In this document: positions 1,956-43,506 of the stretch, piece by piece
Layout: the number at the start of each line of letters is the position of its first letter
How positions within the stretch are numbered: position 1 is the stretch's first letter
Source: Candidatus Poribacteria bacterium
Lineage (GTDB): Bacteria > Poribacteria > WGA-4E > WGA-3G
DNA length: 64,000 bases
Direction of reading: 5' to 3'
Assembly: GCA_964291315.2 (NCBI GenBank)
Contig: OZ219750.1
Location: 288,001 to 352,000 of the forward strand
Position numbers and translations under genes: made by a program
The notes under the pieces: generated by a model
What the model was told of the DNA's origin: nothing
Seen by the model: the letters and a program-made list of their open reading frames with translations, nothing else
The model's database searches: none

Positions 1956-4622
1956 TTATTGGTCTGATACCGCGCTATAATAAATCGCGTTGAAGAGCAG
2001 CTTAAAAGTTCCATGAGATTGTCCACGTTGCTGTGGTTTAAAACCAAAGAGTACCACGCGCCCCGCTCCAAGCTGCGTTTCTAACAGTGCGGTTTTCTGC
2101 CGAATCCGTTTCTCTCCTTCGAGCCATCCACTCATCAACGGGTTGAATTCTGGATACGTCGCTACGGCTTTCACATCCCCGCGCACACCGTCAAAGACAG
2201 GTCCTGATTTAAAGAAAATCGCCATGTCTCGATCCAGTCCATACCCTATCGGATGCTTGGTATCTATGCGGACGCGTAAGAGGGAGCCGGGACAAAAGAA
2301 AGTATTTGCTTTGGACTGATTTGCTTTTTCGACCACATTGACGATGCCCTTTTCACCAAGTCCAAAGTATTCCAAAGGGAGTTCTGCTGCTTGATTCAAG
2401 CAGATAAGTGTACCACCATCCTCTACGAAGGCGCGTAGATTCGCTAGTCCCTGTGTGCCTATACCACCGACGTATTCCGCTGGTAACTTTCCCGGTGCGT
2501 GTCCGTTGAGTATACCGGAAGTGCTCATATCTGGCAAGATGATTGCATCGTAGCGATCTTCCAAATTTCCTGCCTGAATTTCTGCGTTTGTGAGGCTGTT
2601 ATAGGTGAACGCGTGTGTATCTAAAACCCACCGTGTCCATCCTTCGTCTATGCTTGCTGTCCACGGTTTGTAAAGTCCTAGACGCGGCATATTCAGTTTT
2701 GAAAGTCTGCCTAATATTTTTTTATCTATAAAAGCTTCAGCGTAGATGTGGGTACCGAATTCCGCCGCGAGTGTTTCCATTTCCTCGGTCGCCTGTGACT
2801 GCGGGGTTGCGGTTCTAATCAGAATTGCCCCTCGGGGCAATATTTTGTCCCTGATCTTTATCTCCCGATTTGTGCTATATAATGTATATTTTGGGTTATT
2901 ATCCGCTAACTTCTCGTGAAACAGATGATTGAGAACTGTCGCTTCAACGTTCGTTCGATTTTCAAGCAGGTAACCCCATGGTTCAGACGCATGCACCAGC
3001 CTCCCTTTTATCTTGGGTAACACGGGTACCTGACTTAGGTCTGCTTCAAAGGGATGTACAACTGGTATCGTTCTGACTCCCATCTGTAGCGGCAGTGTCC
3101 ATCCCGCGATGTCGTAAGGACGTTCGGGCGGTGATTCCGGCGACGGGCGGCGTTCTGGGTAACGTTGAGCTTCAAGCAGGTCCTTCGCGTGTGCTCGAAA
3201 CGGTTGGGACATTAAAACAACATAAGTTTCCGCGGGATACTCTACGCCGTCTGCAGTGAACGGTGAGTTTGCCTGATGAATTTCTACACCGCCATGTTTC
3301 AAAATGTCTAACATCTTAAGAGTTGTGTGAATGTCGCGTTGTTGTGTCGGAATGAGAAATGCCCGGGGCGGTCCATTTTTTCCTTCTGCTATTGCTTTGA
3401 GTCCCATCTTGTAGAAGTTAGTTTTCAGCATGACCCGATGCTCTGCCACGAAATCGAGAATTGAGAGTGCAGCAGCTTTTTCATATTCTACGATATTTCG
3501 TAATCTCCACCAGCCCCCGGGCCACGGTTCCGGAAAATTCGTACGAAGCGTGTATTCATCTAGCCCGCGCTGATAACCCTTTAAGGTATGATACGGTTGG
3601 AAAATTGGGGTTGCTATCTCTACGCGTGCTGCTTCTGTCAAAATACCTACCATATTGTGCCGGTACGGGACTGTCCGGAATCCACCGTGCCACCATGTAT
3701 CGTAGACTGCATTCGAAAGTACTCCTGTGAATCCTTTACTCGTCAAGTCGAAAGCGAGCTGTGCGCCGATTAATGAAAGCGTTCGTTGTAGCAGAGGGGG
3801 TATATTCGGGTTAACTGGTTCAAAATATGGTGGGATTACAAACCGGGGTCCCCGATAACTCATCTCATGTATGTCATAAACGACTTCGGGAAACCACTTC
3901 TCGTAAAGCACGCGTGTGAGAATCTGTGTCTCTGTCTGTGTTAGCATAAACCAATCCCGATTGTTATCGTGTCCTGTATATTTATGATACAACCAGGGGA
4001 TTTCTGAACCTTCATACGGAGTACCAACGGTGAGGTTATACCAGTCGGTTACGATATTCAAACCGTCAGGATTCGCGGAGGGAATCAATAGGATTATCAC
4101 ATTCTCAAGAATTTTTCGGATTTGTGGTGTTGCAGCTCTTGCGAATTCGTGCGCAAATTCCATTGACATTTGAGAGGAGGCGATTTCTGTGGAATGTAGA
4201 TTACAGTTAATCAGGACCACCGCTTTACCCTCTTGTGCAAGGGCATCTAATTCCTCTTTTCCCTTTTCCGTTGTGGGTGTACTGGGTGTCGCGAGTTGTC
4301 TTTGAATTGTTTGATAGTGCGCCAGATTCTCCAGGTTTTCCGGGGCGGAAATTAGCAGCATTAGAAAATCGTTGCCTTCTGTTGTTTGTCCGAGTTCTTC
4401 TAACAGAATCCGATCTGAGTTATCAGCGACATGCCGCATGTACTCGGAAACTGCCTGCCATCCTGCCACTTTGTAGTCTGTACCGACCTGAAATCCGAGG
4501 GACTCTTCTGGCGACACCAGCTGTGCAAGGGATTTCCCGTGTATGAACGCTGGGCAGATGAGTGATATGATGAATATAAACCAGCATGTTATATTTTCAA
4601 CTTTCGGCAGATATTTTTTCAT
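1956..4622 (-). CDS. Secreted M14-family zinc carboxypeptidase-like protein with C-terminal GATase-like region
   Basis: Signal peptide; LHSTE (HxxE), NPDG, DNNRDW, DIHEM motifs typical of M14-like peptidases. Confidence 0.85.
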   Translation of the reverse strand: MKKYLPKVENITCWFIFIISLICPAFIHGKSLAQLVSPEESLGFQVGTDYKVAGWQAVSEYMRHVADNSDRILLEELGQTTEGNDFLMLLISAPENLENLAHYQTIQRQLATPSTPTTEKGKEELDALAQEGKAVVLINCNLHSTEIASSQMSMEFAHEFARAATPQIRKILENVIILLIPSANPDGLNIVTDWYNLTVGTPYEGSEIPWLYHKYTGHDNNRDWFMLTQTETQILTRVLYEKWFPEVVYDIHEMSYRGPRFVIPPYFEPVNPNIPPLLQRTLSLIGAQLAFDLTSKGFTGVLSNAVYDTWWHGGFRTVPYRHNMVGILTEAARVEIATPIFQPYHTLKGYQRGLDEYTLRTNFPEPWPGGWWRLRNIVEYEKAAALSILDFVAEHRVMLKTNFYKMGLKAIAEGKNGPPRAFLIPTQQRDIHTTLKMLDILKHGGVEIHQANSPFTADGVEYPAETYVVLMSQPFRAHAKDLLEAQRYPERRPSPESPPERPYDIAGWTLPLQMGVRTIPVVHPFEADLSQVPVLPKIKGRLVHASEPWGYLLENRTNVEATVLNHLFHEKLADNNPKYTLYSTNREIKIRDKILPRGAILIRTATPQSQATEEMETLAAEFGTHIYAEAFIDKKILGRLSKLNMPRLGLYKPWTASIDEGWTRWVLDTHAFTYNSLTNAEIQAGNLEDRYDAIILPDMSTSGILNGHAPGKLPAEYVGGIGTQGLANLRAFVEDGGTLICLNQAAELPLEYFGLGEKGIVNVVEKANQSKANTFFCPGSLLRVRIDTKHPIGYGLDRDMAIFFKSGPVFDGVRGDVKAVATYPEFNPLMSGWLEGEKRIRQKTALLETQLGAGRVVLFGFKPQQRGQSHGTFKLLFNAIYYSAVSDQ

Positions 4623-28988: not shown

Positions 28989-29747
28989 ATGCGGTTGAAT
29001 AATAAAATTGCTGTTGTCACAGGAGGCGGGCGCGGTATCGGCAGAGCAGCGGCACTCCGGTTTGCTCAAGAGGGAGCCAAAGTTGTTGTTGATGACGTGG
29101 ACGATAGCGCGGGAACGTCGACGGTTTCCGCTATAACAGGTGCAGGCGGTGAAGCACTGTTTGTTAACGCTGATGTTGCCGACCCTGACGATGCAGAAAG
29201 ACTGGCTGCTGAGGCGGTCGATGCTTACGGCACGGTTGACATCCTTGTGAATAATGCTATCTGTTCTACAGCCGATGTACTCAACAATAACTGGGAGGCA
29301 AACCTCGCTGTTGCTCTTCGAGGAACCAGCCACTGTTCCAATGCCGTTATTCCGGTGATGCAAGAGGGCGGAGGAGGTAGTATTGTTAACGTCGCCTCAG
29401 TCAACGGACTTGTCGGATTACAGGCGATTCATGCCTACTCTGCTGCAAAAGGTGGTGTCATCGCACTGACCCGATCCATGGCAGTTGTACACGGTAAAGA
29501 CAACGTTCGTATCAACTGTATATGCCCCGGGACAATTCAGACTGAGGTTTGGGAACCGATGCTTGAACGTAACCCGCAGATCCTAGATGAACTCACATTT
29601 TGGTACCCGTTAGGACGGATTGGACAACCCGTCGATATTGCGAATGCTGCACTCTTTCTGGCATCTGATGAAGCGGGTTTTGCAACGGGGGCGGTCTTTG
29701 TCATTGATGGCGGCTTGACAGCTGGCAATCACCAGTTCCCGATTTGA
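28989..29747 (+). CDS. Short-chain dehydrogenase/reductase
   Basis: TGGGRGIG, NNA, YSAAK. Confidence 0.93.
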   Translation: MRLNNKIAVVTGGGRGIGRAAALRFAQEGAKVVVDDVDDSAGTSTVSAITGAGGEALFVNADVADPDDAERLAAEAVDAYGTVDILVNNAICSTADVLNNNWEANLAVALRGTSHCSNAVIPVMQEGGGGSIVNVASVNGLVGLQAIHAYSAAKGGVIALTRSMAVVHGKDNVRINCICPGTIQTEVWEPMLERNPQILDELTFWYPLGRIGQPVDIANAALFLASDEAGFATGAVFVIDGGLTAGNHQFPI

Positions 29748-29910: not shown

Positions 29911-30605
29911 TATGTCAAAGAAAAGTTTCGACCAAAAACTGATTAATCTTCTCGAAACCAACCCTAACTTTGTTGATGATAGCGGAGCATTCCATCGCCC
30001 GAGCGTCAGGCAACGGGCTTGGAAACTCGACCCCGAGCTCATTCGGACCCTGTGTACCGACGAAGAAATCGCGGCGAAGTTCTTCAAAGAGATAGCAGGA
30101 CGCTGGATCTTCGATAACAACGCCTTCGTTGATTATATCACGGATAAGAACTTCTTTGCCGACTCCTACACCCAGTTCCGCAATAGAATCGGCTTGAACA
30201 TTGATGGCAAGTATCTGCGCGAGCGTGGGGAAGTCGCCCTGGTCTGGCCGTATAAGGATTGCGTATTAGAAGGTGGTCAGACGCGCGAAGAGGAGAGGCG
30301 TAAAGAGATATTCTTCAACGAGGTTCTCGCGCCGGATGAGATAGATCGTATGTTTGATGCGAAGGTTCTGATGGGTTGGGAGCGTCATGGTGTTAGGAGT
30401 ATGGGAGGAGAGGTTGATAAGAGCGGGGGGGGTAATCTGTGATAAGCACATAGAAAATGGAACCCTCGAACTGAAGCGAGATGACGCTGGCGTTATTCGC
30501 GAGAACCTTGTCATCAAAGGCAACAACCTGATTGTCCTGCACACCCTTAAAGAGCAATTTCGCGGGCAGGTCAAACTCATTTACATCGATCCACCGTATA
30601 ATACG
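29911..30605 (+). repeat. Direct repeat, mod 5' conserved block (other copies about 31882-32680 and 35936-36733; copies 2 and 3 also share about 104 bp of upstream DNA)
   Basis: Near-identical nucleotide sequence by visual comparison. Confidence 0.92.
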
Positions 30606-31874
30606 GGAGGTTCATCGGAGACCTTTACCTACAACAACGCCTTTAATCACTCAACGTGGCTGACGTTTATGAAAAATAGGCTTGAAGCATCTCTCGATTT
30701 ATTGACTGCAAACGGAATGATAGTGGTTGCTATTGATGACATTGAAATGTTTTATCTGGGTGTGCTTTTAGATGAAGTTTTTGGTAGACAAAACAAGATC
30801 GGTTTAGTCTGCATTAGACATCACCCTCGTGGTAGAACACAAAGTCGTTTTTTTTCCGCAGTTCATGAATATGCGCTTTTTTATGCCAAAGACATTGAAC
30901 AAGTGACAGAAAATTTTCGCTTTGAAACGGATGATGTAGAAGAAGTAGAATCCTTCATCCGGGGAAGAGAAGATGCAACACCTGAGACTCGACCTACCCT
31001 CTATTATTCAATTTTTTACAACCCCGCGACAGGGGAGATTGCACTCTCTCCGAAGAGTAGTGATTTCATTGAGCTCTTACCGGAAAATAGGAATGGTATG
31101 AGGACTTGGAAACTTGTTAAAGAGTCTTTCTTAAAGGAATTACAAGAAGGCAAAATTGAGGTGCGAAACGTCAACAACAAATATGAAATTTATAGAAAGA
31201 TAGTTAGAGAGAAAAATAAAGCGAAGACAATGTGGACAGAGCCTCGGTATGATGCAAACCCTCATGGTACGGGGCTCCTTAAAAAATTGTTTGATGGGCA
31301 AACTCCGTTTAGCTATCCAAAATCGTTGTATACAATTGTGGACATCCTAAAGCTCACAACGAGTGAGGATGACCTTGTGCTCGACTTCTTTGCGGGCTCA
31401 GGCACTACAGGGCATGCGGTCTTAGAATTAAATAAACAAGACGGAGGATCCCGGCAGTTTATACTCGTAGAACAGTTGGACAAGCACATAGCCGTTTGTA
31501 AAGAACGACTTGAGAAAGTCATTGAAAAAGAAGGGCTTCTCGGAGCACATTTCGTCTCGTGTGAGCTGATGCCTTACAACGAAGTCTTCATGGAACGGAT
31601 CCAGTCGGCAGACACCTCTGCCGAGCTATTGGACATCTGGCACGATATGTCAGAAGATTCCGCTCTCAATTGGTACGTCACCCCGGAGCATCCAGAGGCG
31701 GCAGAGGCACACTTTATCGCTATCAACGACGTTGAGGGACAGAAGCGGCTATTAGCGGAGTTATTGGATAAGAATCAGCTGTATGTGCATCTCTCTGAAA
31801 TAGAGGACGAAACATTTCAGGTCAGTGAGACAGATAAGACGTTGAATAAGGCATTTTACCGCAAACCGCTATGA
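29912..31874 (+). CDS. mod: Type III R-M methyltransferase Mod, copy 1, split by a frameshift at G8 (30425-30432)
   Basis: N-terminal ORF 29912-30442 plus overlapping catalytic ORF with IKGNNL, YIDPPY, YPKS, DFFAGSGTT; G7 or G10 would fuse them. Confidence 0.9.
31378..31858 (+). repeat. Direct repeat, mod 3' conserved block (other copies about 33498-33980 and 37549-38000)
   Basis: Near-identical DNA from the VLDFFAGSGTT codons to the C-terminus. Confidence 0.92.
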
Positions 31875-31985
31875 ACAAACTCATTTGATGGCTTTATTTT
31901 ACCACAAAGTTCTCTTTGGACAACATTGTTAATTCTCTATCAATTCACATTACCTCACACATGAAGACAAAAAGGACACACCTGT

Positions 31986-33996
31986 ATGTCAAAGAAAAGT
32001 TTCGACCAAAAACTGATTAATCTTCTCGAAACCAACCCTAACTTTGTTGATGATAGCGGAGCACTCCATCGCCCGAGCGTCAGGCAACGGGCTTGGAAAC
32101 TCGACCCCGAGCTCATTCGGACCCTGTGTACCGACGAAGAAATCGCGGCGAAGTTCTTCAAAGAGATAGCAGGACGCTGGATCTTCGATAACAACGCCTT
32201 CGTTGATTATATCACGGATAAGAACTTCTTCGCCGACTCCTACACCCAGTTCCGCAATAGAATCGGCTTGAACATTGATGGCAAGTATCTGCGCGAGCGC
32301 GGGGAAGTCGCACTCGTCTGGCCCTATAAGGATTGTGTATTAGAAGGCGGTCAGACGCGCGAAGAGGAGAGGCGTGAAGAGATATTTTTCAACGAGGTTC
32401 TGGCGCCGGATGAGATAGATCGTATGTTTGATGCGAAGGTTCTGACGTGTTGGGAGCGTCATGCTATTAGGGCGATGGGAGGAGAGGTTGATAAGAGCGG
32501 GGGGGGTAATCTGTGATAAGCACATAGAAAGTGGAACCCTCGAACTGAAGCGAGATGACGCTGGCGTTATTCGTGAGAACCTTGTCATCAAAGGCAACAA
32601 CCTGATTGTCCTGCACACCCTTAAAGAGCAATTTCGCGGGCAGGTCAAGCTCATTTGCATCGACCCGCCGTATAATACAGGTGGAGAAGCAAATATTTTC
32701 ACTTATAACAACACTTTCAACCATTCCAGTTGGCTGACCTTTATGAAAAATAGGTTGGATATAGCAAAACAATTGTTGAGAGATGATGGGTTTATCGCAA
32801 TTTCCATAGATCAATATGAGCTTTTATACTTAGGAACGTTAGCTGACGAAATTTTTGGGAGGGATAACCGTATTTCGGTGCTAACCATCGTTCATCATCC
32901 GGCGGGTAAGACCAACAACAATTTTTTCGCAACAACAAACGAATTTATGATAGTGTATGCTAAGAATAGGGAGCTTGCAAAGCTAAGCTTTTTCGAGATG
33001 TCTGAAAAGACTGAGAGGAGCTACCAGCACGTAGATGAGGTTTCACGATACAAACTAGAAAATCTGATGCGAAAGGGGGAAACAAGGAACGCTCGCCGAG
33101 AAGATAGACCGAAACAATTTTATCCCATTTATATCTCTAAGGACCTAAAACAGATTTCTTTGACAAAAGAGGACAACTATTATGAAGTTCTCCCAACAGA
33201 AAATGGGAGAGAATGGGTATGGTCAAATTCACCTTCAACTTTGCAGAAAAAAATAGATAATAACGAAATAGCTGTCAAAAAGCATAAAGATGGATACATT
33301 CAGGTCTTTTTTAAACGAAGAATCACGGATTATCCGGGAGAGCGTCCGAAGAGCACTTGGATTGGTAAAAAGTATAATGCTACGGAACATGGCACCAAAC
33401 TGTTGGAGCGTATATTGGGGAAAAAATCTTTTTCATATCCAAAGTCGTTATACACGATCGTAGACATCATAAAAATTACGACAGAGCCTGGCGATATTGT
33501 GCTGGATTTCTTTGCGGGCTCAGGCACTACAGGACATGCGGTGTTAGAGCTGAATAAAGAGGACGGTGGCAATCGGCAGTTTATCCTTGTAGAACAGTTG
33601 GACAAGCACATAGCCGTTTGTAAAGAACGGCTTCGGAAAGTTATGGAAAAAGAGGGGCTTCTCGGAGCACATTTCGTCTCGTGTGAGCTGATGCCTTACA
33701 ACGAAGTCTTCATGGAACGGATCCACTCGGCGAACACCTCTGCCGAGCTACTGGACATCTGGCACGATATGTCAGAAGATTCCGCACTCAATTGGTACGT
33801 CACCCCGGAGCGTCCAGAGGCGGCAGAGGCACACTTTATCGCTATCAACGACGTTGTGGGACAGAAGCGGCTATTAGCCGAGTTATTGGATAAGAACCAG
33901 CTGTATGTGCATCTCTCTGAAATAGAGGACGAAACATTTCAGGTCAGCGCGGCAGATAAGACGTTGAATAAGGCATTTTATGGTAATCTTATATGA
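31986..33996 (+). CDS. mod: Type III R-M methyltransferase Mod, copy 2, split by a frameshift at G8 (32499-32506)
   Basis: Same architecture; CIDPPY, DFFAGSGTT; central region differs from copies 1 and 3. Confidence 0.9.
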
Positions 33997-34025
33997 ACTA
34001 CCTGAAGCTATCAGTATATGGATAG

Positions 34026-35486
34026 TTAAACACCAAAAAATTCCGAAATACCCTTAATAAGCTTTGAGTAAATACTCAAAGCTCCAGATGTTGTGGACAT
34101 AAGATCAACTGGGGTTTTTCGTGAATTTGAAACATGAAATATGGCATTTCGGTGCATTTTGAGTTTTCGCATTTCTTTAGAAGACGTGAATGTATCCAAT
34201 TTTCTATTGGCTAGTGAAGGATCCTCTTTTGATACAGCATAGTAGATTCTCAGAAGCTCATAAAAAAGAGCTATGTTAACCCTATATGGGGCAATCCACT
34301 CGTCACAATCTTGAAGGCTAAAACTGTTAGGGATGTCTTTACAGATGCAAGATAATTCTTCCTTACTGATTAAAGGATACTGTTTATTTTTTTCCAAAAG
34401 ACTCATATTAACTGAATTTCTTTCGTAAAGAAATTCATTCCACAGTACAACACTAGTCATTAGAATGCGCATGTAGCCTCCTATATTCTCCTTTAGATGG
34501 GTTGCATGCTCCCGGCTACCAAGAAAATTTGATATTTGCCTTCCAGATATCAACATAGCAATTATATGATGTCGCATTGCCGTTTGTTTCTCTACTAGCT
34601 CAGTAGATTGTCCATCAATAATAATAGAGGTTTCTCCTGTTAAGTATTGTGGAATGAAGTGCACTTTAGGCAAAGCCTGATCCAACTCGTTCATGCATTC
34701 TGCAATACAATAGGCTATCTTTATTTGTGTTTGGTTCGGTAACCAGGATTGAATGTTCTCTGGCAATATTTTTATTTTTCGCTTTAGTTCTGGTAACTGA
34801 TCCACACACCACTTCATGCCTGATAGGTTGTGATCAAGTTTCATTTGCTCCATCTTGACTGTTAGAAAGCTATATAGGCAATACAATTTCTGGATTTCCG
34901 GTAGGCAATTAAGAGTGTTTGACAGATAATTGGATAATTTGTCCTGCAGCCTTTGTAGGTATCCATCGAATTTGCATTGCAGGATTGGAGCTAGGTTATG
35001 AGAAGGCTTAACTTGTAAAAATTGACGTTCAGCAGAGAGACTGTCTTTATTCGGATGCAGGAAAGAATCTCGGAATTTCTTTAACCTATCAACCCACTGT
35101 TTGTTGGTTTTCAAATAAGAATCCAGTTCATCATCCCGGTAGATGTTGTGGGTTTTCTTTAATTTTTCGAAAGATTCAATTTCAGCGTAGAACAAAGCAA
35201 GGTACAGTTGAAGCGGATAAACCGTTGCATATTCGATACCAGTTCGATTAGTCTCATTATTTTCTAATCCTTGATCGTTCAGCATCTTCGATTGAATGTC
35301 TTCTATTGTTACCTCGCCTTCGTTTCTATTTTGGCAATACTCAGATGCTTCTGTAAAGTGGATCATATTACGAAATGCTATTTTACGTATGCGCTCAAGA
35401 ATGACTGTCCTATGGTAAAGTAAATTCTTATAAGGGTTAACTATGGATTGTATATTGACAATATCTAGTTTTTCAAGATCTGTCAC
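34026..35486 (-). CDS. AT-rich protein with two duplicated HEPN-like domains (putative RNase/defence effector)
   Basis: GTG start with GGAGG RBS; Rx4H motifs RDSFLH (aa 139-144) and RNAIFH (aa 446-451), each preceded by an alignable P....ALFY...K...LD...LK segment. Confidence 0.7.
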   Translation of the reverse strand: MTDLEKLDIVNIQSIVNPYKNLLYHRTVILERIRKIAFRNMIHFTEASEYCQNRNEGEVTIEDIQSKMLNDQGLENNETNRTGIEYATVYPLQLYLALFYAEIESFEKLKKTHNIYRDDELDSYLKTNKQWVDRLKKFRDSFLHPNKDSLSAERQFLQVKPSHNLAPILQCKFDGYLQRLQDKLSNYLSNTLNCLPEIQKLYCLYSFLTVKMEQMKLDHNLSGMKWCVDQLPELKRKIKILPENIQSWLPNQTQIKIAYCIAECMNELDQALPKVHFIPQYLTGETSIIIDGQSTELVEKQTAMRHHIIAMLISGRQISNFLGSREHATHLKENIGGYMRILMTSVVLWNEFLYERNSVNMSLLEKNKQYPLISKEELSCICKDIPNSFSLQDCDEWIAPYRVNIALFYELLRIYYAVSKEDPSLANRKLDTFTSSKEMRKLKMHRNAIFHVSNSRKTPVDLMSTTSGALSIYSKLIKGISEFFGV

Positions 35487-35586
35487 TTCAATTTCCTCCG
35501 TATTTGCCAGTTGATGTTTTATCCACTACAAATTGCAAATAACATAAGGTGGACTATATAGTTATCGATAATCTTATTTTGGGTAT

Positions 35587-35615
35587 AGTATAGCACAATT
35601 AAATAGGGAAATCAA
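35587..35615 (-). promoter_or_regulatory. Sigma70-type promoter for the dual-HEPN gene
   Basis: Minus strand TTGATT-N17-TATACT with an extended TG. Confidence 0.5.
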
Positions 35616-35899
35616 ATTTCGACCGGGGGTATTTAGTTTTAAAATTTCTCACTGACTGTATGATTTTAACATTAGGTGATTGTTAAACAAAAAAAAGATC
35701 CTTCGTGGTCTTGACCATTGTAACAGTTTATACAGTTTAGGGGCAATCTGAGTTATGTCTAGAAAAATGTCCGATAAATCGGCACGTGAAAAAGCAAGCT
35801 GGCTCTGCTTAGGTCAAAAATAATAAATGTAAAAAAAATAGGCGAAGAAATACAGATACCTGCTCATAAGAGAAAAAAGTCGTTTATTTCGCAGAAAAG

Positions 35900-35908
35900 T
35901 GTTATAAT
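35900..35908 (+). promoter_or_regulatory. Extended -10 promoter upstream of mod3-res
   Basis: TGtTATAAT just before the repeated upstream block. Confidence 0.45.
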
Positions 35909-36039
35909 CTATTATGAGGATTTCTTTTGGAACAACATTTGATGGCTTTATTTTACCACAAAGTTCTCTTTGGACAACATTGTTAATTCTCTATCAATTC
36001 ACATTACCTCACACATGAAGACAAAAAGGACACACCTGT

Positions 36040-38053
36040 ATGTCAAAGAAAAGTTTCGACCAAAAACTGATTAATCTTCTCGAAACCAACCCTAACTTTG
36101 TTGATGATAGCGGAGCACTCCATCGCCCGAGCGTCAGGCAACGGGCTTGGAAACTCGACCCCGAGCTCATTCGGACCCTGTGTACCGACGAAGAAATCGC
36201 GGCGAAGTTCTTCAAAGAGATAGCGGGGCGTTGGATCTTCGATAACAACACCTTCGTTGATTATATCACGGATAAGAACTTCTTCGCCGACTCCTACACC
36301 CAGTTCCGCAATAGAATCGGCTTGAACATTGATGGCAAGTATCTGCGCGAGCGCGGGGAAGTCGCCCTGGTCTGGCCGTATAAGGATTGCGTATTAGAAG
36401 GCGGTCAGACGCGCGAAGAGGAGAGGCGTGAAGAGATATTTTTCAACGAGGTTCTGGCGCCGGATGAGATAGATCGTATGTTTGATGCGAAGGTTCTGAC
36501 GTGTTGGGAGCGTCATGCTGTTAGGAGTATGGGAGGAGAGGTTGATAAGAGCGGGGGGGGTAATCTGTGATAAGCATATAGAAAACGGAAGCCTCGAACT
36601 GAATAGAGATGATGCTGGCGTTATTCGTGAGAACCTTGTCATCAAAGGCAACAACCTGATTGTCCTGCACACCCTTAAAGAACAATTTCGCGGGCGGGTC
36701 AAACTTATTTACATCGATCCACCGTATAATACCAAAGGAGATGCTAACATTTTTGGATATAACAATTCTTTCAATCACTCAAGTTGGTTGACATTTATGA
36801 AAAACAGACTTGATATTGCTCAAGATATGTTATCAGAAAATGGAGTAATAGTTGTTACCATAGATGATTATGAATATGCTCACCTTAAATTGCTATGTGA
36901 TGAGGTTTTCGGCATAAACAATTATATTGGAACTATAGTAATCCAAAACAAGCCAGGTGGTAGGACAATAAACCCCCATTTTGCTACCTGTCACGAATAC
37001 GCTTTATTTTACGCGAAAGCTATTGATAATATAAAAACAAACCTTGTCAAACTCACTAAACAACAAGAGCTGAGCTTCAACTTTAAGGATCAGATTGGCA
37101 GATATCAACTTTCACCATTTAGGCGGGGTGGAGGCTATTCAACACCTGAAGAGAGACCTAATTCTTTCTATCCGATTTACTATAATCCACATGGAAATGA
37201 ATTTTCTCTTAAGAAAAAGGAAGGATTTTTTCAAATTCTCCCCAAAGATTCACACGGGAAAAACCGAGTTTGGCGGCAGACAAAACCCTCTTTTGAAAAA
37301 TTAGTGGAGAAAGGGGAAATCGTCTGTAAAAAGTCTAAAGGCAAATGGAGCTTGTACATAAAGGATCGGATGCCAGAAGGACGGAAAACTAAAACGATAT
37401 GGACTGATTCAAAATATGACGCGTCAGCACATGGAACAATACTTCTTAAAAAGATGTTTGATGGTGAGAAAGTCTTCAGTTATCCTAAATCGATTCATGC
37501 CGTAAAAGATACTATTAATCTTCTAACTCAGCCCAACGATAAAGATATTGTGCTGGATTTCTTTGCGGGTTCAGGCACTACAGGGCATGCGGTGTTAGAG
37601 CTGAATAAAGAGGACGGTGGCGCTCGGCAGTTTATACTTGTAGAACAATTGGACAAGCACATAGCTGTTTGTAAAGAACGACTTGAGAAAGTCATTGAAA
37701 AAGAGGGGCTCCTCGGAGCAAATTTTGTCTCGTGTGAGCTGATGCCTTACAACGAAGTCTTCATGGAACGGATCCAGTCGGCGAACACCTCTGCCGAGCT
37801 ATTGAACATCTGGCACGATATGTCAGAAGATTCCGCTCTCAATTGGTACGTCACCCCGGAGCATCCAGAGGCGGCAGAGGCACACTTTATCGCTATCAAC
37901 GACGTTGAGGGACAGAGGCGGCTATTAGCCGAGCTGTTGGATAAGAACCAGTTGTATGTGCATCTCTCTGAAATAGAGGACGAAACATTTCAGGTCAGTG
38001 AAGCAGACAAAACACTCAATAAGAATTTTTATGAAGGAGATCACGATGCCTAA
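36040..38053 (+). CDS. mod: Type III R-M methyltransferase Mod, copy 3, split by a frameshift at G8 (36553-36560)
   Basis: Same architecture; YIDPPY, DFFAGSGTT; 3' end overlaps the res start. Confidence 0.9.
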
Positions 38054-40649
38054 CCTATTTCTCCATGAAGAACTCGACATCGCATTTAGCTACGGGGTAC
38101 CTAAACCTGAAATACCTGATAGCATTCTTCAAAACCTGAATCCTGCGTTTGAGCTTCGACCTTATCAAGTAGAGGCGTTTGCGAGGTCTATTCACTGTTT
38201 GAACGGAGATCTTCAGGCTAAGCAAAATCCGTCACATCTGCTGTTTAATATGGCAACCGGCAGCGGTAAGACGCTTATTATGGCGGGGCTGATCCTCTAT
38301 CTCTATGAACAAGGCTACCGGAATTTTCTCTTTTTCGTCAATGCCGACAATATCATTGAAAAAACAAAGGATAATTTTCTCAATTCGGGGTCCTCAAAAT
38401 ACCTTTTCAATGCGGACATCTATATCAAAGGCGACAGAGTTAAGGTGACAGAAGTAGAGAATTTTGAAGGAGTCAACGCAAACGACATTAACATCCGATT
38501 TGCGACAATTCAGAAGTTACACAGCGATTTGATGACAGAAAAAGAGAACGCTTTAACCTTTGATAATTTTGAGAAAGAGAGAATCGTTCTTTTGGCTGAC
38601 GAAGCGCACCACCTGAACGTCGCTGCGAGGGCACAACAGATCCAATTGGCTCTCAGCACGAAGAATTCAAAATTGGCTGGGAAGCCGACATGGGAGAACA
38701 CTGTTGAAAAGATATTTAACGCGAACGCCGGCAACTTGTTGCTGGAATTCACAGCTACGTTTGATGACAAAACCCCTGCAATTGTAGAAAAGTATCGGGA
38801 TAAAATCATCTATCGCTATGATTTAGTTCAATTTCGGAACGACAAATATTCAAAGGACATAGAGATTGTGAGGTCTGATTTCAGTCTGGAGGACCGTATT
38901 TTGCAAGCTGTTATTCTTCATTATTACAAGCAGGCAGTTGCTGCAAAACACACGATCCAGCTGAAACCGGTCATTCTGTTTAAGGGAAAAACAATACCGG
39001 ATTCCAAAAAAAATAAAGCGGATTTCCATAAACTTATGGAAAGGCTCACAAAAAATGATATTGAAAGGATTCGGAGGTCTGAAGTTGAAATTATTAAACG
39101 GGCGTTTCGCTTTTTTGATAATCATAAGATCAGTTCCGAGCAGTTGACTCGATCGCTCAAAACGGTCTTCCAGGAAAAATATTGTCTCGCTGTTAACTCG
39201 AAGATAGAGAGAGAGAAGTATCAGGTACAGGTAAACAGACTTGAGGAAAGAGACAATCCCATCCGCGCTATTTTCGCAGTGCAAATGCTCAGCGAAGGAT
39301 GGGATGTGCTGAATCTGTTCGACATCGTCCGCTGTTATGATACCGGTAGCACAGGGCATAACAAAATTGGGAAAGCGACAATTGCGGAGGCACAGCTTAT
39401 TGGGCGTGGGGCGCGTTATTATCCGTTCGCTCTGTCAGGGTACGCGGATAAATACAGGCGCAAATTTGACGAAGACATTGAACATGAACTTCGTGTGCTT
39501 GAGGAACTACATTATCACAGCATTAATGACTCGCCTTACATCACTGAAATCCGAAAGGCCCTGGTCGAGCAAGGGTTGATAGACAAAGAGACTGTGACTC
39601 GAGAGCTTAAATTGAAGGAGAAATTTAAGAAAACGGACCTTTACAAGTACGGTGTTATCTATTTGAATAAACAGGTGTCCAGAGACTATCAATATGTCAA
39701 ATCTTTTGCGGATTTGGCATCCTTGAGTGTGAAAAAGAAATGGCATGAGCATACGATTCACGAAAGCACGGGAGGGATGACGAAGATGATAGGAAAAAAA
39801 CAGACTTATGCCGTGCGGAACACAACTAGCCAAGACATAGCGATGGTCCATATTGAGCGCAATATTGTCCAAACTGCCCTCGCGCGGAATCCATTTTTCC
39901 GGTTTGCATCACTTAAGCGATATTTTCCGCAGTTGAGATCCATGAATGAATTTAGGACATCACCTGACTTTTTGGGGGGCTTGTCAATCACTTTCAAAGG
40001 AGATTTTTCCCAATTGGAAGACAGAGCATCAGAAAAACTGAAGGCGTGTTGCGATCTTTTGAAAAGAATAGAAACCGAACTTCGCCAACAAATTACCGAA
40101 TCTGAAGGTACGAAGTCCTTTCATAAGGAGCAAATCCACGCTATTTTCAAGGACAAGGCCCTGAAGTTCGATGCTAAGAACCCTCGGGCCGATGAGGATC
40201 ACGATGCTGAGCGTCTCGCGAAAGCGGAGAAATGGTTTGCTTTTGATGGGCTATACGGCACCAGCGAAGAAAAAGCCTTCGTACAATTTCTACATACACA
40301 TCTTGAAACATTAGAGGAAACCTACAGCGATATTTATCTGATCCGTAACGAGAGACATTTTTCTATTTATAATTTCCGTGACGGTCGAGCGTTCCAACCC
40401 GATTTTGTCCTCTTCTTAGGAAAGGAAGGCGGAGAAACATTGAGCTATCAACTTTTTATTGAACCGAAAGGTGAACACATTGCAGATTTTGACAGATGGA
40501 AAGAGGGCTTTCTGAAAGAAATTGATAGTGAACATAAGACTGAACTCATAATAGAGGATAAGAAATACCGTATTATCGGTCTACCGTTTTATCAGGAGAG
40601 AAAACAGAATGAATTCCGCGTTGCCCTTGATAAAGCACTGCAATTATAA
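38046..40649 (+). CDS. res: Type III restriction endonuclease Res subunit
   Basis: MATGSGKT, DEAH, EFTAT, LSEGWDVLN, QLIGRGAR; C-terminal FQPDF...FIEPKG (PD-ExK); RBS GAAGGAG. Confidence 0.93.
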   Translation: MPNLFLHEELDIAFSYGVPKPEIPDSILQNLNPAFELRPYQVEAFARSIHCLNGDLQAKQNPSHLLFNMATGSGKTLIMAGLILYLYEQGYRNFLFFVNADNIIEKTKDNFLNSGSSKYLFNADIYIKGDRVKVTEVENFEGVNANDINIRFATIQKLHSDLMTEKENALTFDNFEKERIVLLADEAHHLNVAARAQQIQLALSTKNSKLAGKPTWENTVEKIFNANAGNLLLEFTATFDDKTPAIVEKYRDKIIYRYDLVQFRNDKYSKDIEIVRSDFSLEDRILQAVILHYYKQAVAAKHTIQLKPVILFKGKTIPDSKKNKADFHKLMERLTKNDIERIRRSEVEIIKRAFRFFDNHKISSEQLTRSLKTVFQEKYCLAVNSKIEREKYQVQVNRLEERDNPIRAIFAVQMLSEGWDVLNLFDIVRCYDTGSTGHNKIGKATIAEAQLIGRGARYYPFALSGYADKYRRKFDEDIEHELRVLEELHYHSINDSPYITEIRKALVEQGLIDKETVTRELKLKEKFKKTDLYKYGVIYLNKQVSRDYQYVKSFADLASLSVKKKWHEHTIHESTGGMTKMIGKKQTYAVRNTTSQDIAMVHIERNIVQTALARNPFFRFASLKRYFPQLRSMNEFRTSPDFLGGLSITFKGDFSQLEDRASEKLKACCDLLKRIETELRQQITESEGTKSFHKEQIHAIFKDKALKFDAKNPRADEDHDAERLAKAEKWFAFDGLYGTSEEKAFVQFLHTHLETLEETYSDIYLIRNERHFSIYNFRDGRAFQPDFVLFLGKEGGETLSYQLFIEPKGEHIADFDRWKEGFLKEIDSEHKTELIIEDKKYRIIGLPFYQERKQNEFRVALDKALQL

Positions 40650-40675: not shown

Positions 40676-41527
40676 ATGGTAACACGTGAGCAGACCGACT
40701 TTTTTCACGAAAACGGATATGTCAAGTTTGGCAGGGTTTTAGATAACGATGGCGTTGAAGCGATGCGGGCAGGATTGGATGCAGTCATTCAGCTGGAGCT
40801 TGCTGCAGGCGATGATTCGTCCCCGGAGTTCAAGTACGGGCATGATCGCGGCGGAGATAGACTTAATCGAGGGGGTGGGCACCCGCGGGCGATTCACCAA
40901 TACATTAATATGTGGAAGCGTGATCCGCGCTATGAGGCAGCTATTCACCATCCGCTCATTGCAGGTACAGCCCGCGCCTTGTTAGATACTCCGGAGGTCC
41001 GCCTTTGGCACGATCAGGTTATCTCCAAGCCGCCTCACGACAACGGGCACTTCGGATTCCATCACGATTTTTTCTTTTGGCCCCTCAGCCCACCGAACAT
41101 TGTCAGCTGCTGGCTAGCGCTTGATGACGCAACAGTTGATAGTGGTTGTATGCACGTTATGCCGGGGAGCCATAAAGACCAACGTTTCTCTGTCGCAGCA
41201 CGAGCGACAGCAGAAGCGGCAGCGGTGAAAGCGCGCGAAGAAGGACGTGAACTGCCGGTCGACCCGTGGGCGGAAAGACGAAATTTGGACATCAGCCACG
41301 GGATTCCCGTAGAATTGGAGGCAGGCGAATGCATGTTCCACCACTGTCTGAATTTCCACGGCACGCCGCCGAATGTCACAGCGCGTCAACGGCGCGCGTT
41401 CGTTATGATTTTCATGGCTCAGGATGTCTGCTTTAACAAGGTGCAGTCACCGAACCATGTGCTTGTTCCAACAATAACGGTTGCGGATGGAGAACCGCTT
41501 GTCGGAGACGGATTTCCGGTAGCCTAG
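40676..41527 (+). CDS. Phytanoyl-CoA dioxygenase (PhyH)-family Fe/2OG enzyme
   Basis: FFHENGYV, HHD (HxD), WLALDDAT, PGSH, FHGT.PN...RRA. Confidence 0.88.
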   Translation: MVTREQTDFFHENGYVKFGRVLDNDGVEAMRAGLDAVIQLELAAGDDSSPEFKYGHDRGGDRLNRGGGHPRAIHQYINMWKRDPRYEAAIHHPLIAGTARALLDTPEVRLWHDQVISKPPHDNGHFGFHHDFFFWPLSPPNIVSCWLALDDATVDSGCMHVMPGSHKDQRFSVAARATAEAAAVKAREEGRELPVDPWAERRNLDISHGIPVELEAGECMFHHCLNFHGTPPNVTARQRRAFVMIFMAQDVCFNKVQSPNHVLVPTITVADGEPLVGDGFPVA

Positions 41528-41561
41528 CTTTGTAACGGATTTCCGGTAGCCTAGCTTTGTA
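41508..41561 (+). repeat. Perfect 27-bp tandem duplication covering the PhyH stop codon
   Basis: ACGGATTTCCGGTAGCCTAGCTTTGTA x2 (41508-41534, 41535-41561). Confidence 0.92.
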
Positions 41562-41619
41562 CAGGATCTGTGTTACAAACCGCATCTACAGCACAGGAAG
41601 CGAGGCGAGAGGTGATCAG

Positions 41620-42825
41620 ATGAAAGATTCAACGTTTATAACAAGGGTTCAACTGAAAAATTATAAGAGTATCGCGGCATGTGATGTGCAGATGCGGTCT
41701 TTGACGTTCCTTGTAGGGCGCAACGGTTCAGGGAAAAGTAATTTTCTTGATGCCCTACGTTTCGTTGCCGATGCGTTGAATCTATCACTGGACCACGCTG
41801 TACGCGACCGAGGTGGTATTAGCGATGTGCGCCGTCGCTCTCGTGGGCACCCAAATCATTTCAATATTCGTCTTGAATTTGCTCTGCCTGAAGGCTCTAC
41901 GGGCCACTACACTTTTCAAATCAGGACGCGTTCACCTGGCGGTTACAAGGTCCAAGCTGAAGAGTGTAAGATTCAGAACAAGCTGTCCCTTATGCCGGAG
42001 GAATACTTTTTTGTTGATGAGGGTACCGTGACGCGCAAAAGTGTTGATGTAGCCCCGGCGGCGGCTACTGATAGACTGTATTTGGTAAACGCTTCTGGTT
42101 TGCCCGAATTTCGCCCTGTCTATGAAGCGTTCTCTCAAATGGGATTTTATAGTCTCAACCCCGAGAAGATTCGTGATCTGCAGGCACCAGATTCCGGCGA
42201 TATGCTCCTTCGTGACGGGAGTAACTTAACAAGTGTGCTTACTCGGCTTTCGCCCACCGTAAAGAGGGACATTGAACGATATCTTGCACGAATTGTTCCT
42301 GGGGTTCATACGGTAGATGTCAAAAATTTTGGACCGAGGGAGACATTGGAGTTCAGACAAGTTGTCACGGGGGACAAACACCCCTGGAAATTTCTTGCGA
42401 ATAATATGTCTGCCGGTACACTCCGCGTATTCGGAATTCTGGTAGCACTATTTCAAGGGCGGTGTGATGTCCAAAAGCATGTACCCCTTGTCGGCATTGA
42501 GGAACCAGAGCTGGCCCTCCATCCGGCAGCTGCAGGGGTGCTGCTTGAGGTACTTCAGGATGCTGCTCGCAAGACGCAAGTTATCGTCACCAGTCACAGT
42601 CCGGATTTGCTCGATGATAAACACTTGGATCTGGAATCGATTCTTGCAGTCGAGGCGCATGAGGGAAATACGGCAATCGCTCCTATAGACGAAGTAGGGA
42701 GGTCTGTATTGCACGATCGACTCTATACAACAGGGGAACTCCTTCGGCTTGATGAGCTACGACCTGATCCAACTCGGGCATCTATAGGTGATAAGGCGGC
42801 CGGAAAGCAGCTTGATTTGTTCTAG
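41620..42825 (+). CDS. AAA_21/RecF-SMC-like ABC-type ATPase
   Basis: LKNYKSI, GRNGSGKSN, MSAGTLR signature, GIEEPELALHP, TSHSP. Confidence 0.88.
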   Translation: MKDSTFITRVQLKNYKSIAACDVQMRSLTFLVGRNGSGKSNFLDALRFVADALNLSLDHAVRDRGGISDVRRRSRGHPNHFNIRLEFALPEGSTGHYTFQIRTRSPGGYKVQAEECKIQNKLSLMPEEYFFVDEGTVTRKSVDVAPAAATDRLYLVNASGLPEFRPVYEAFSQMGFYSLNPEKIRDLQAPDSGDMLLRDGSNLTSVLTRLSPTVKRDIERYLARIVPGVHTVDVKNFGPRETLEFRQVVTGDKHPWKFLANNMSAGTLRVFGILVALFQGRCDVQKHVPLVGIEEPELALHPAAAGVLLEVLQDAARKTQVIVTSHSPDLLDDKHLDLESILAVEAHEGNTAIAPIDEVGRSVLHDRLYTTGELLRLDELRPDPTRASIGDKAAGKQLDLF

Positions 42826-42867
42826 GCTGGTAAAGCGGAGTCAAATCGAGCGTAAAGGAAATATTGA

Positions 42868-43506
42868 GTGGCGGTGAAAATTAGTTGCATTGTTGAAGGG
42901 GATAGTGAATTGGAATCTGTACCTGTCCTGATTAGGCGGGTCTCAGCGATGTGTTATCCTGGTGTGGCGCTTGTCATCCCACGACCTATCCGCATTCCCA
43001 GAAATCGGGTTATTAAAATCGGTGAACTTGAACGAGCAGTTGAGTTGGCTGCTCGGAAGATCCGGAGGCAGGGAGCTATATTTATCATCCTTGATTCTGA
43101 TCGTGATTGCCCGGCGCACTTAGGACCGAAGCTGCTTCAACGGGTTTTACGAACTCATCGAAATCTGCCGGTTGCCGTTGTGCTTGCAAAGTGCGAATTT
43201 GAGGCATGGTTCCTCGCAGCAGCTGAGTCCCTTCGTGGACAAAGAGGGTTAAGAAGCAATATCTACGCGCCGAACGATCCGGAGGCGATCTGTGGGGCAA
43301 AGGAATGGTTAAGTCAGCATATGCAAAATGGGAAAACTTACAAATCAAAGCGCGACCAACCCGCACTCGCAGCGATTTTTGATATAGAGCAGGCGCGTCG
43401 ATCCAATTCGTTTGACAAGTGCTACCGGGAGATCGTTCGTCTCCTCGGCGAGCTGCGAGAACCAGTTAAAATAACCAGTAAATCAATAAGGCAGCTAACA
43501 AAGTAA
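42868..43506 (+). CDS. DUF4276-like (TOPRIM-type) protein partnered with the ATPase
   Basis: IVEGDSE, ILDSD, EFEAWFLA, SNSFDK pattern. Confidence 0.75.
   Translation: MAVKISCIVEGDSELESVPVLIRRVSAMCYPGVALVIPRPIRIPRNRVIKIGELERAVELAARKIRRQGAIFIILDSDRDCPAHLGPKLLQRVLRTHRNLPVAVVLAKCEFEAWFLAAAESLRGQRGLRSNIYAPNDPEAICGAKEWLSQHMQNGKTYKSKRDQPALAAIFDIEQARRSNSFDKCYREIVRLLGELREPVKITSKSIRQLTK

Follow-up and report, generated by a model that had tools for sequence, protein, structure and literature searches.

A probable default-OFF bank of type III methyltransferase specificities ahead of a single res gene in Candidatus Poribacteria

Repeat-switched type III methyltransferase (mod) genes that lie together and share one restriction gene (res) are known from Mycoplasma. 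In Mycoplasma bovis PG45, three co-located mod alleles carry a GA tract at the same place and different target-recognition domains (TRDs; PMC5909438), and a single res overlaps mod1 (bioRxiv 2026.05.01.722158). M. agalactiae 5632 has two tandem mods and a res (PMC9465063), M. hyorhinis SK76 has three mods, one intact and two split, and a res (PMC13736764), and a similar multi-mod cluster is found in M. pulmonis. Type III Res finds DNA only via Mod, and a Mod that is off also silences restriction (bioRxiv 2026.05.01.722158). In EcoP15I (Mod2Res1), site recognition falls to one Mod and methylation to the other, with Res contacting the methyltransferase (MTase) and C-terminal domains (PMC4490356). 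Here we analyzed a 64,000-nucleotide stretch of a Candidatus Poribacteria genome (contig OZ219750.1, positions 288,001 to 352,000 of the forward strand; the window), in which three tandem mod cassettes, each broken at the same run of eight G (G8), precede one intact res. We consider it probable that this locus is a phase-variable poly-G, default-OFF bank of type III specificities sharing one Res, in what appears to be a defence hotspot. The elements of the array, in window positions, are:

29912..31874, + strand: mod cassette 1, split; open reading frame (ORF) 29912-30442 (176 amino acids (aa), PF12564), then a +1-frame ORF ending at 31874 (PF01555, DPPY, TRD1, FxGxG)
30425..30432, + strand: G8 run of cassette 1, inside a linker insertion that most relatives lack
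30650..31375, + strand: variable region, or TRD1, limits approximate; 85% identity to TRDs of two other Poribacteria loci, 73% to cassette A of the L085 array
31875..31985, + strand: spacer with ribosome-binding site; 104 bp of it recur exactly ahead of cassette 3
31986..33996, + strand: mod cassette 2, split at G8 (176 aa + 511 aa)
32499..32506, + strand: G8 run of cassette 2
32720..33497, + strand: variable region, or TRD2, limits approximate; 85-87% identity to TRDs in relatives, ratio of nonsynonymous to synonymous substitution rates (dN/dS) 0.05-0.06
35880..35908, + strand: promoter-like site read by eye, TCGTTT-17-TATAAT with a TGn extension; homologous to a TTGTCT-17-TATAAT site ahead of two orphan mods
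35936..36039, + strand: second exact copy of the 104-bp spacer
36040..38053, + strand: mod cassette 3, split at G8 (176 aa + 512 aa), with its stop inside the beginning of res, an overlap of 8 nucleotides (nt)
36553..36560, + strand: G8 run of cassette 3
36775..37548, + strand: variable region, or TRD3, limits approximate; 81% identity to cassette C of the L085 array
38046..40649, + strand: res, 867 aa, intact; the only res of its family found in the genome

The cassettes are direct repeats starting at 29912, 31986 and 36040. Aligned in 100-column bins, their DNA was 89-100% identical in the 5' blocks, 31-63% in the centre and 83-99% in the 3' blocks, in agreement with an earlier note on this stretch that had described three mod paralogs with near-identical ends and divergent centres; the protein region from DPPY to LDFF showed 40-46% identity among the three. 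The mods matched PF12564 and PF01555, and PADLOC called each of them MTase_III. They have the beta-class order DPPY, TRD, FxGxG, with both motifs preserved in 3/3 cassettes when read across the frameshift, and the start, ribosome-binding site and catalytic motifs are retained in all three. At 32647-32649, cassette 2 reads LICIDPPY and the other two cassettes LIYIDPPY. The intact res that the note had placed after the array is an SF2 helicase with a C-terminal PD-(D/E)xK-type nuclease, matching PF04851 (ResIII) and the PADLOC model REase_III and carrying Walker A, DEAH and PD...EPK-type motifs at residues 70, 185, 785 and 805 (the nuclease motif was read by eye). It is directly preceded by mod, with cassette 3 overlapping it at 38046-38053. 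The note had missed the G8 frameshift in each mod, a 486-aa cargo gene inside the array and four orphan mod paralogs outside it.

Every mod in the window is broken at the identical G8 run, with the downstream ORF (495, 511 and 512 aa in cassettes 1, 2 and 3) in the +1 frame, and none of the three is full length in the assembly. Read directly from the sequence, G8 or G9 leads to a stop within 0-3 codons, and G7 or G10 is in frame. The run sits in a 45-49-nt linker insertion upstream of the methyltransferase domain. A G run is missing from 24 of the 28 linkers listed (the window's own is one of the 28), and these 24 keep the frame. Of 120 database relatives, 97 combine full length with a short linker and 6 combine it with a long one. 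Nine relatives bear a tract at the window's G-run site (G8-G11), two of them in frame. The genome, which is 95% complete, has seven mods of the window's family and one res. Four of the seven are orphans with no res adjoining, and all seven carry G8 or G9, out of frame, together with seven different TRDs; both halves of each are free of other stops, and there is no second lesion. TRD1 and TRD2, the two tested, are under purifying selection, with dN/dS of 0.05-0.07 against three relatives (0.04-0.24 in the common blocks). Elsewhere, genome G000 has type III-like mods of 1100 and 1054 aa (C4:2247824 and C4:2872878) with a res-like gene adjoining and with C7 and G8 runs in frame.

Frame changes were concentrated at long G/C runs. 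Counting only runs flanked by long open frames, the frame changed at 28/30 G/C8-9 runs, compared with 0/13 at G/C7, 5/157 at G/C6 and 6/245 at A/T7-9, which argues that the break at the tract is not an assembly fault. None of the 28 frameshift-type tract genes is in frame; they fall into four repeated methyltransferase-like families, grouped by BLAST and motif (the hidden Markov model scan covered the window's family only), and have a common G(n)TA context. When metagenome contigs were searched for the tract context as a DNA pattern, there were 0 matches. At about 30 sites in G000 (including C1:459317, C4:1202798 and C4:330232), C8-C10 runs lie 45-470 bp upstream of large repeated-family genes, in a context that resembles a reversed mod tract.

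The layout of three repeat-switched mods and one res is already known from Mycoplasma, and in this the window locus is not exceptional. Like Mbo45ORF167P of M. bovis PG45 (mod1-3 and res), it combines mods that agree at their ends but differ in their TRDs, a repeat at one common position in each and a single res that overlaps the mod closest to it, and Mbo45V (PDB 7DSU) was the top PDB sequence match of cassette 3 (E 1e-46). The tract is (AG)n in Mycoplasma and G8 in a linker insertion here, which would be the same working principle with a separate origin. Unlike the Mycoplasma clusters, including those of M. agalactiae 5632 and M. hyorhinis SK76, the window has all copies OFF, cargo inside the array and four orphan paralogs; its Mod subfamily also differs (PF12564 N-terminal domain, about 660 aa), as does the genome of 4.4 Mb. 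Phase-variable mods in general have a frameshifting simple repeat in the mod ORF and allelic TRDs (PMC5909438), as in the window, but usually there is one per locus with alleles spread over strains. EcoP15I has the same beta-class Mod with the TRD between DPPY and FxGxG, the SF2 Res and the mod-res overlap, but a single mod without a switch. No paper on such loci in Poribacteria was among the literature matches listed; the REBASE tables behind PMC5909438 could hold more multi-mod loci. What is new is the array itself, the single Res for seven Mods and the independent L085 array.

In a tree of 43 intact-enough proteins with the TRDs removed (rows that were split or truncated were excluded, two L085 copies among them), the window's three copies grouped together (98/83) and then with two orphans (100/99). 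The TRDs of the window copies have 81-87% matches on other backbones; five of the seven TRDs match loci of other genomes at 77-87% and TRD3 does so at 81%, and single-nucleotide polymorphism patterns among the five close copies form a patchwork. TRD movement has been documented (PMC3467074), and the window resembles the known cases in that TRDs are common to different mod backbones and loci, with conserved blocks flanking them; unlike in those cases, donors and recipients here also stand in tandem. Imperfect related copies of the 104-bp spacer lie on both sides of two orphan mods, which suggests that spacer and mod duplicate as a unit. The orphan mods at C1:429879-431910 and C1:466888-468904 of G000 have identical conserved blocks and different TRDs, and each is bounded by imperfect direct repeats of ~75 bp related to the array spacer. 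An inversion shufflon of the hsdS type was rejected, since the repeats are direct only and the longest inverted pair is 26 nt at 73%. No recombinase family was found among the locus ORFs scanned, and a crude whole-block composition measure showed no strong flips between blocks (GC skew 0.05-0.14).

Under the reading that we favour, a mod unit would have duplicated within a hotspot of the form SDR-[mod, cargo]-res-PhyH, and recombination in the conserved 5' and 3' blocks would have replaced TRDs, placing three specificities ahead of one res. Slipped-strand changes (G8 to G7, G9 to G10) would turn on single copies in a minority of cells, presumably in a reversible manner, and a Mod that is ON would methylate the asymmetric site specific to it and bring in the common Res. 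Since all three copies are OFF in the assembly, the consensus cell is predicted to lack these activities; Res would then be without a DNA-recognition partner and should be harmless, and the OFF default could make the array a reserve of defence or methylation states. The four res-less paralogs could use the same Res in trans. The three copies are 91-96% identical in their MTase and C-terminal parts, the parts that contact Res in EcoP15I, which makes both Res sharing and mixed Mod dimers plausible. The earlier note had pictured a switchboard of specificities sharing one Res, with copies switching singly, and the G8 in each copy fits this, although different target motifs for TRD1-3 are inferred from sequence divergence. 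Of its further suggestions, Mod heterodimers are plausible, but the division of labour in EcoP15I implies that they should not create hybrid motifs; a tract in each copy would allow up to 2^3 states, but all three are OFF and the states are not equally used. Cassette 3 and two orphan mods have a common promoter-like leader, and mod3-res is probably driven by the site at 35880..35908; cassette 2, with only the spacer ahead of it, is probably transcribed from cassette 1. A promoter and terminator scan was unspecific (32 sites vs 21.8 expected).

Several points weigh against a switch. In four public runs, all from one study (X1-X4; X1 may be the source sample), the G8 form was dominant, with a +G form in X2, X3 and X4 and, at 4513 of 23599 summed depth, a -G form in X3 that restores the frame, but these tract variants are summed over paralogs and strains, are unassignable to a copy and may be fixed strain differences. 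L041, one of the two in-frame tract-bearing relatives, is truncated later. A run of eight G is short for a fast switch. That 28/28 tract genes are OFF has a chance of 1.2e-5 if frames are random and independent, which the copies are not, and it calls for strong selection of the OFF state, or else for a mechanism other than a switch. In addition, the second ORF of the G8 state has an in-frame ATG ahead of it, and a GGGAG lies four bases before that ATG.

Programmed slippage would be one such mechanism: the gene would work in the G8 or G9 state, with a low, constant level of full-length Mod arising through ribosomal frameshifting or slippage of RNA polymerase. This would account for tract genes that are all out of frame yet intact and for the G(n)TA context common across families and at two sites of the mod gene, and frameshifted M. 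bovis mod1 reporters do leak in E. coli (bioRxiv 2026.04.01.715767). However, +1 (G8) and +2 (G9) states both occur and the run of one family reads C on the coding strand, which argue against a single ribosomal signal; in-frame tract alleles exist and DNA tract lengths vary. We consider slippage as the sole explanation unlikely, and leakage can go together with phase variation. The in-frame ATG invites another explanation, in which the second ORF starts at its own ATG (30387, 32461 and 36515) and its product pairs with the 176-aa N-terminal piece, so that G8 is the ON state of a split gene. The ribosome-binding duplex at the GGGAG reaches -7.0 kcal/mol compared with -5.5 at the true mod starts, and separate Mod pieces were seen by proteomics in M. 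hyorhinis (PMC13736764). Nevertheless, this ATG arises incidentally from the His codon in WERH, the seven out-of-frame relatives lack it upstream of the tract, its spacing is short, and the switch in L085 cuts after motif I, beyond such rescue; we regard a split gene as highly improbable.

Cassettes 1 and 2 might alternatively be a silent TRD store, donors only to the res-coupled copy, or recently inactivated copies. An overlap with res and an obvious promoter are found in cassette 3 alone, the copies exchange sequence, and decayed mods are common among relatives; yet cassette 3 is equally OFF, all three cassettes keep the features needed for expression and catalysis listed above, and the same break in 7/7 copies with no second lesion is unlike decay, which makes this a quite improbable account. 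The joining of strain alleles by misassembly, which the earlier note had named as one way in which its claim could fail, or a G7 miscalled as G8, would turn the array into an artefact. The mod1-mod2 junction and a span of the whole array were absent among the public pieces listed (763 further pieces are not listed), and the best-matching run may be the source sample. On the other side, X1 contigs bridge three junctions (SDR-mod1, mod2 end-cargo-mod3 leader and mod3 end-res) with zero differences, the closed relative L031 holds two tandem mods at the same locus, and the homopolymer controls place frame changes at G/C8-9 runs. A loose end in X2, which we take to be an Illumina adapter, makes G8 more than a long-read call. 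Per-contig depths in X1, which are not copy numbers, were 1047 for the flank, 1043 for TRD1, 961 for TRD2, 536 for the cargo and 529 for TRD3; together the three TRDs reach 2.4 times the flank depth, which hints weakly that they are not alternative alleles and that TRD1 and TRD2 coexist, with the cargo and cassette 3 in only part of the population. We give the artefact hardly any credence. The cargo and TRD3 were barely covered, if at all, in X2-X4, and in X1 they reached roughly half the depth of the flank, which hints that the cargo and cassette 3 form a variable unit, though with no contig joining across we do not count this as shown. An X1 contig over TRD3 has an extra G at 36695, 22 bases short of where the contig stops; with it, cassette 3 would be frameshifted a second time. 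The res allele in X2 is diverged and lacks 27 bases, in frame, at 38644.

The array and its hotspot have counterparts in relatives. The closest relatives of res are from Candidatus Poribacteria, and the SDR-[mod, variable cargo]-res-PhyH hotspot recurs among them. Cassette number, which the earlier note had suggested comparing, was scored at the 50 of 73 res loci with at least 8 kb upstream, and 47 were scored with a single mod. L078 has two mods and L085 three, and L080 was scored with two but is one frameshifted gene; L064, on a short contig, has two mods, but L078 and L064 match loci already surveyed and are counted once. Multi-mod arrays are rare (2/50) but recurrent. L085 (OZ244048.1), a second Poribacteria chromosome, has three tandem mods and a res at L085:4163-12607, a different locus, with 59% identity between its res and the window's. 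Its TRDs match TRD1 (first, 73%), an orphan (middle, 77%) and TRD3 (last, 81%). A G9-TAG directly behind motif I interrupts the first and last mods; the middle mod is unbroken. This array is independent, and its G9 switch lies at another gene site than the G8 of the window. At L037 and L053 (G002), an element with ORFs of 342 and 515 aa and a G12-13 run interrupts a mod; the mod halves lie ~200 kb apart in G002, each adjoining a copy of that element.

On a tentative view, which we hold to be possible rather than likely, Poribacteria may have repeatedly built silent type III specificity libraries: one Res with up to seven Mods in tandem and scattered cassettes, a phylum-wide TRD pool, and a G run that arose at no fewer than two gene sites and keeps the gene off frame by one or two bases. 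Methylation would be zero by default, and cells would either flip on single specificities or, through slippage, leak all of them at a low level, giving cell-to-cell methylation diversity in an uncultured symbiont. With the window, the design of several mods and one res, known from small-genome Mycoplasma, reaches an uncultured phylum, where it seems to have originated on more than one occasion. The window also supplies exact tract sites where long-read methylomes could tie tract length to methylation state per molecule. It also carries a warning for annotation, as mods resembling pseudogenes or sequencing errors are probably switches.

The remaining features of the hotspot are:

28989..29747, + strand: SDR gene, conserved left flank
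34026..35486, - strand: cargo gene between cassettes 2 and 3, 486 aa, all-helical, low guanine-cytosine content; HEPN-like candidate
40676..41527, + strand: PhyH-family gene, conserved right flank

In relatives, the cargo position holds Rpn/YhgA-like, DUF3800, FRG-TPR, DUF2971 or unknown genes. The cargo protein of the window had no Pfam or PADLOC match, no Foldseek match at E<=0.001 and no Atlas match at 0.9, and a homolog was not found in 64 genus genomes. It has 20 database relatives, and two R-x4-H motifs (R139..H144 and R446..H451) are invariant in 20/20 aligned homologs. Its structure model is confident and helical (predicted local distance difference test 82). Residues 5-186 gave Z 5.3 against Vpc_cass2 and Z 4.5 against SO_3166 (VIA), both within background; we take these two proteins to be HEPN folds. 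The cargo is a candidate HEPN-like defence nuclease.

Beyond the right flank, at 41557-43506, lies an ATPase and DUF4276 pair with a PADLOC HEC-01A/B match, two genes past res; such a pair also stands next to res in several relatives. A perfect 27-bp tandem duplication (41508-41561) spans the stop codon of the PhyH gene. In G000, two 16S 3'-tail motifs, at C4:3185872 and 3187717, lie on the same strand 1.8 kb apart.

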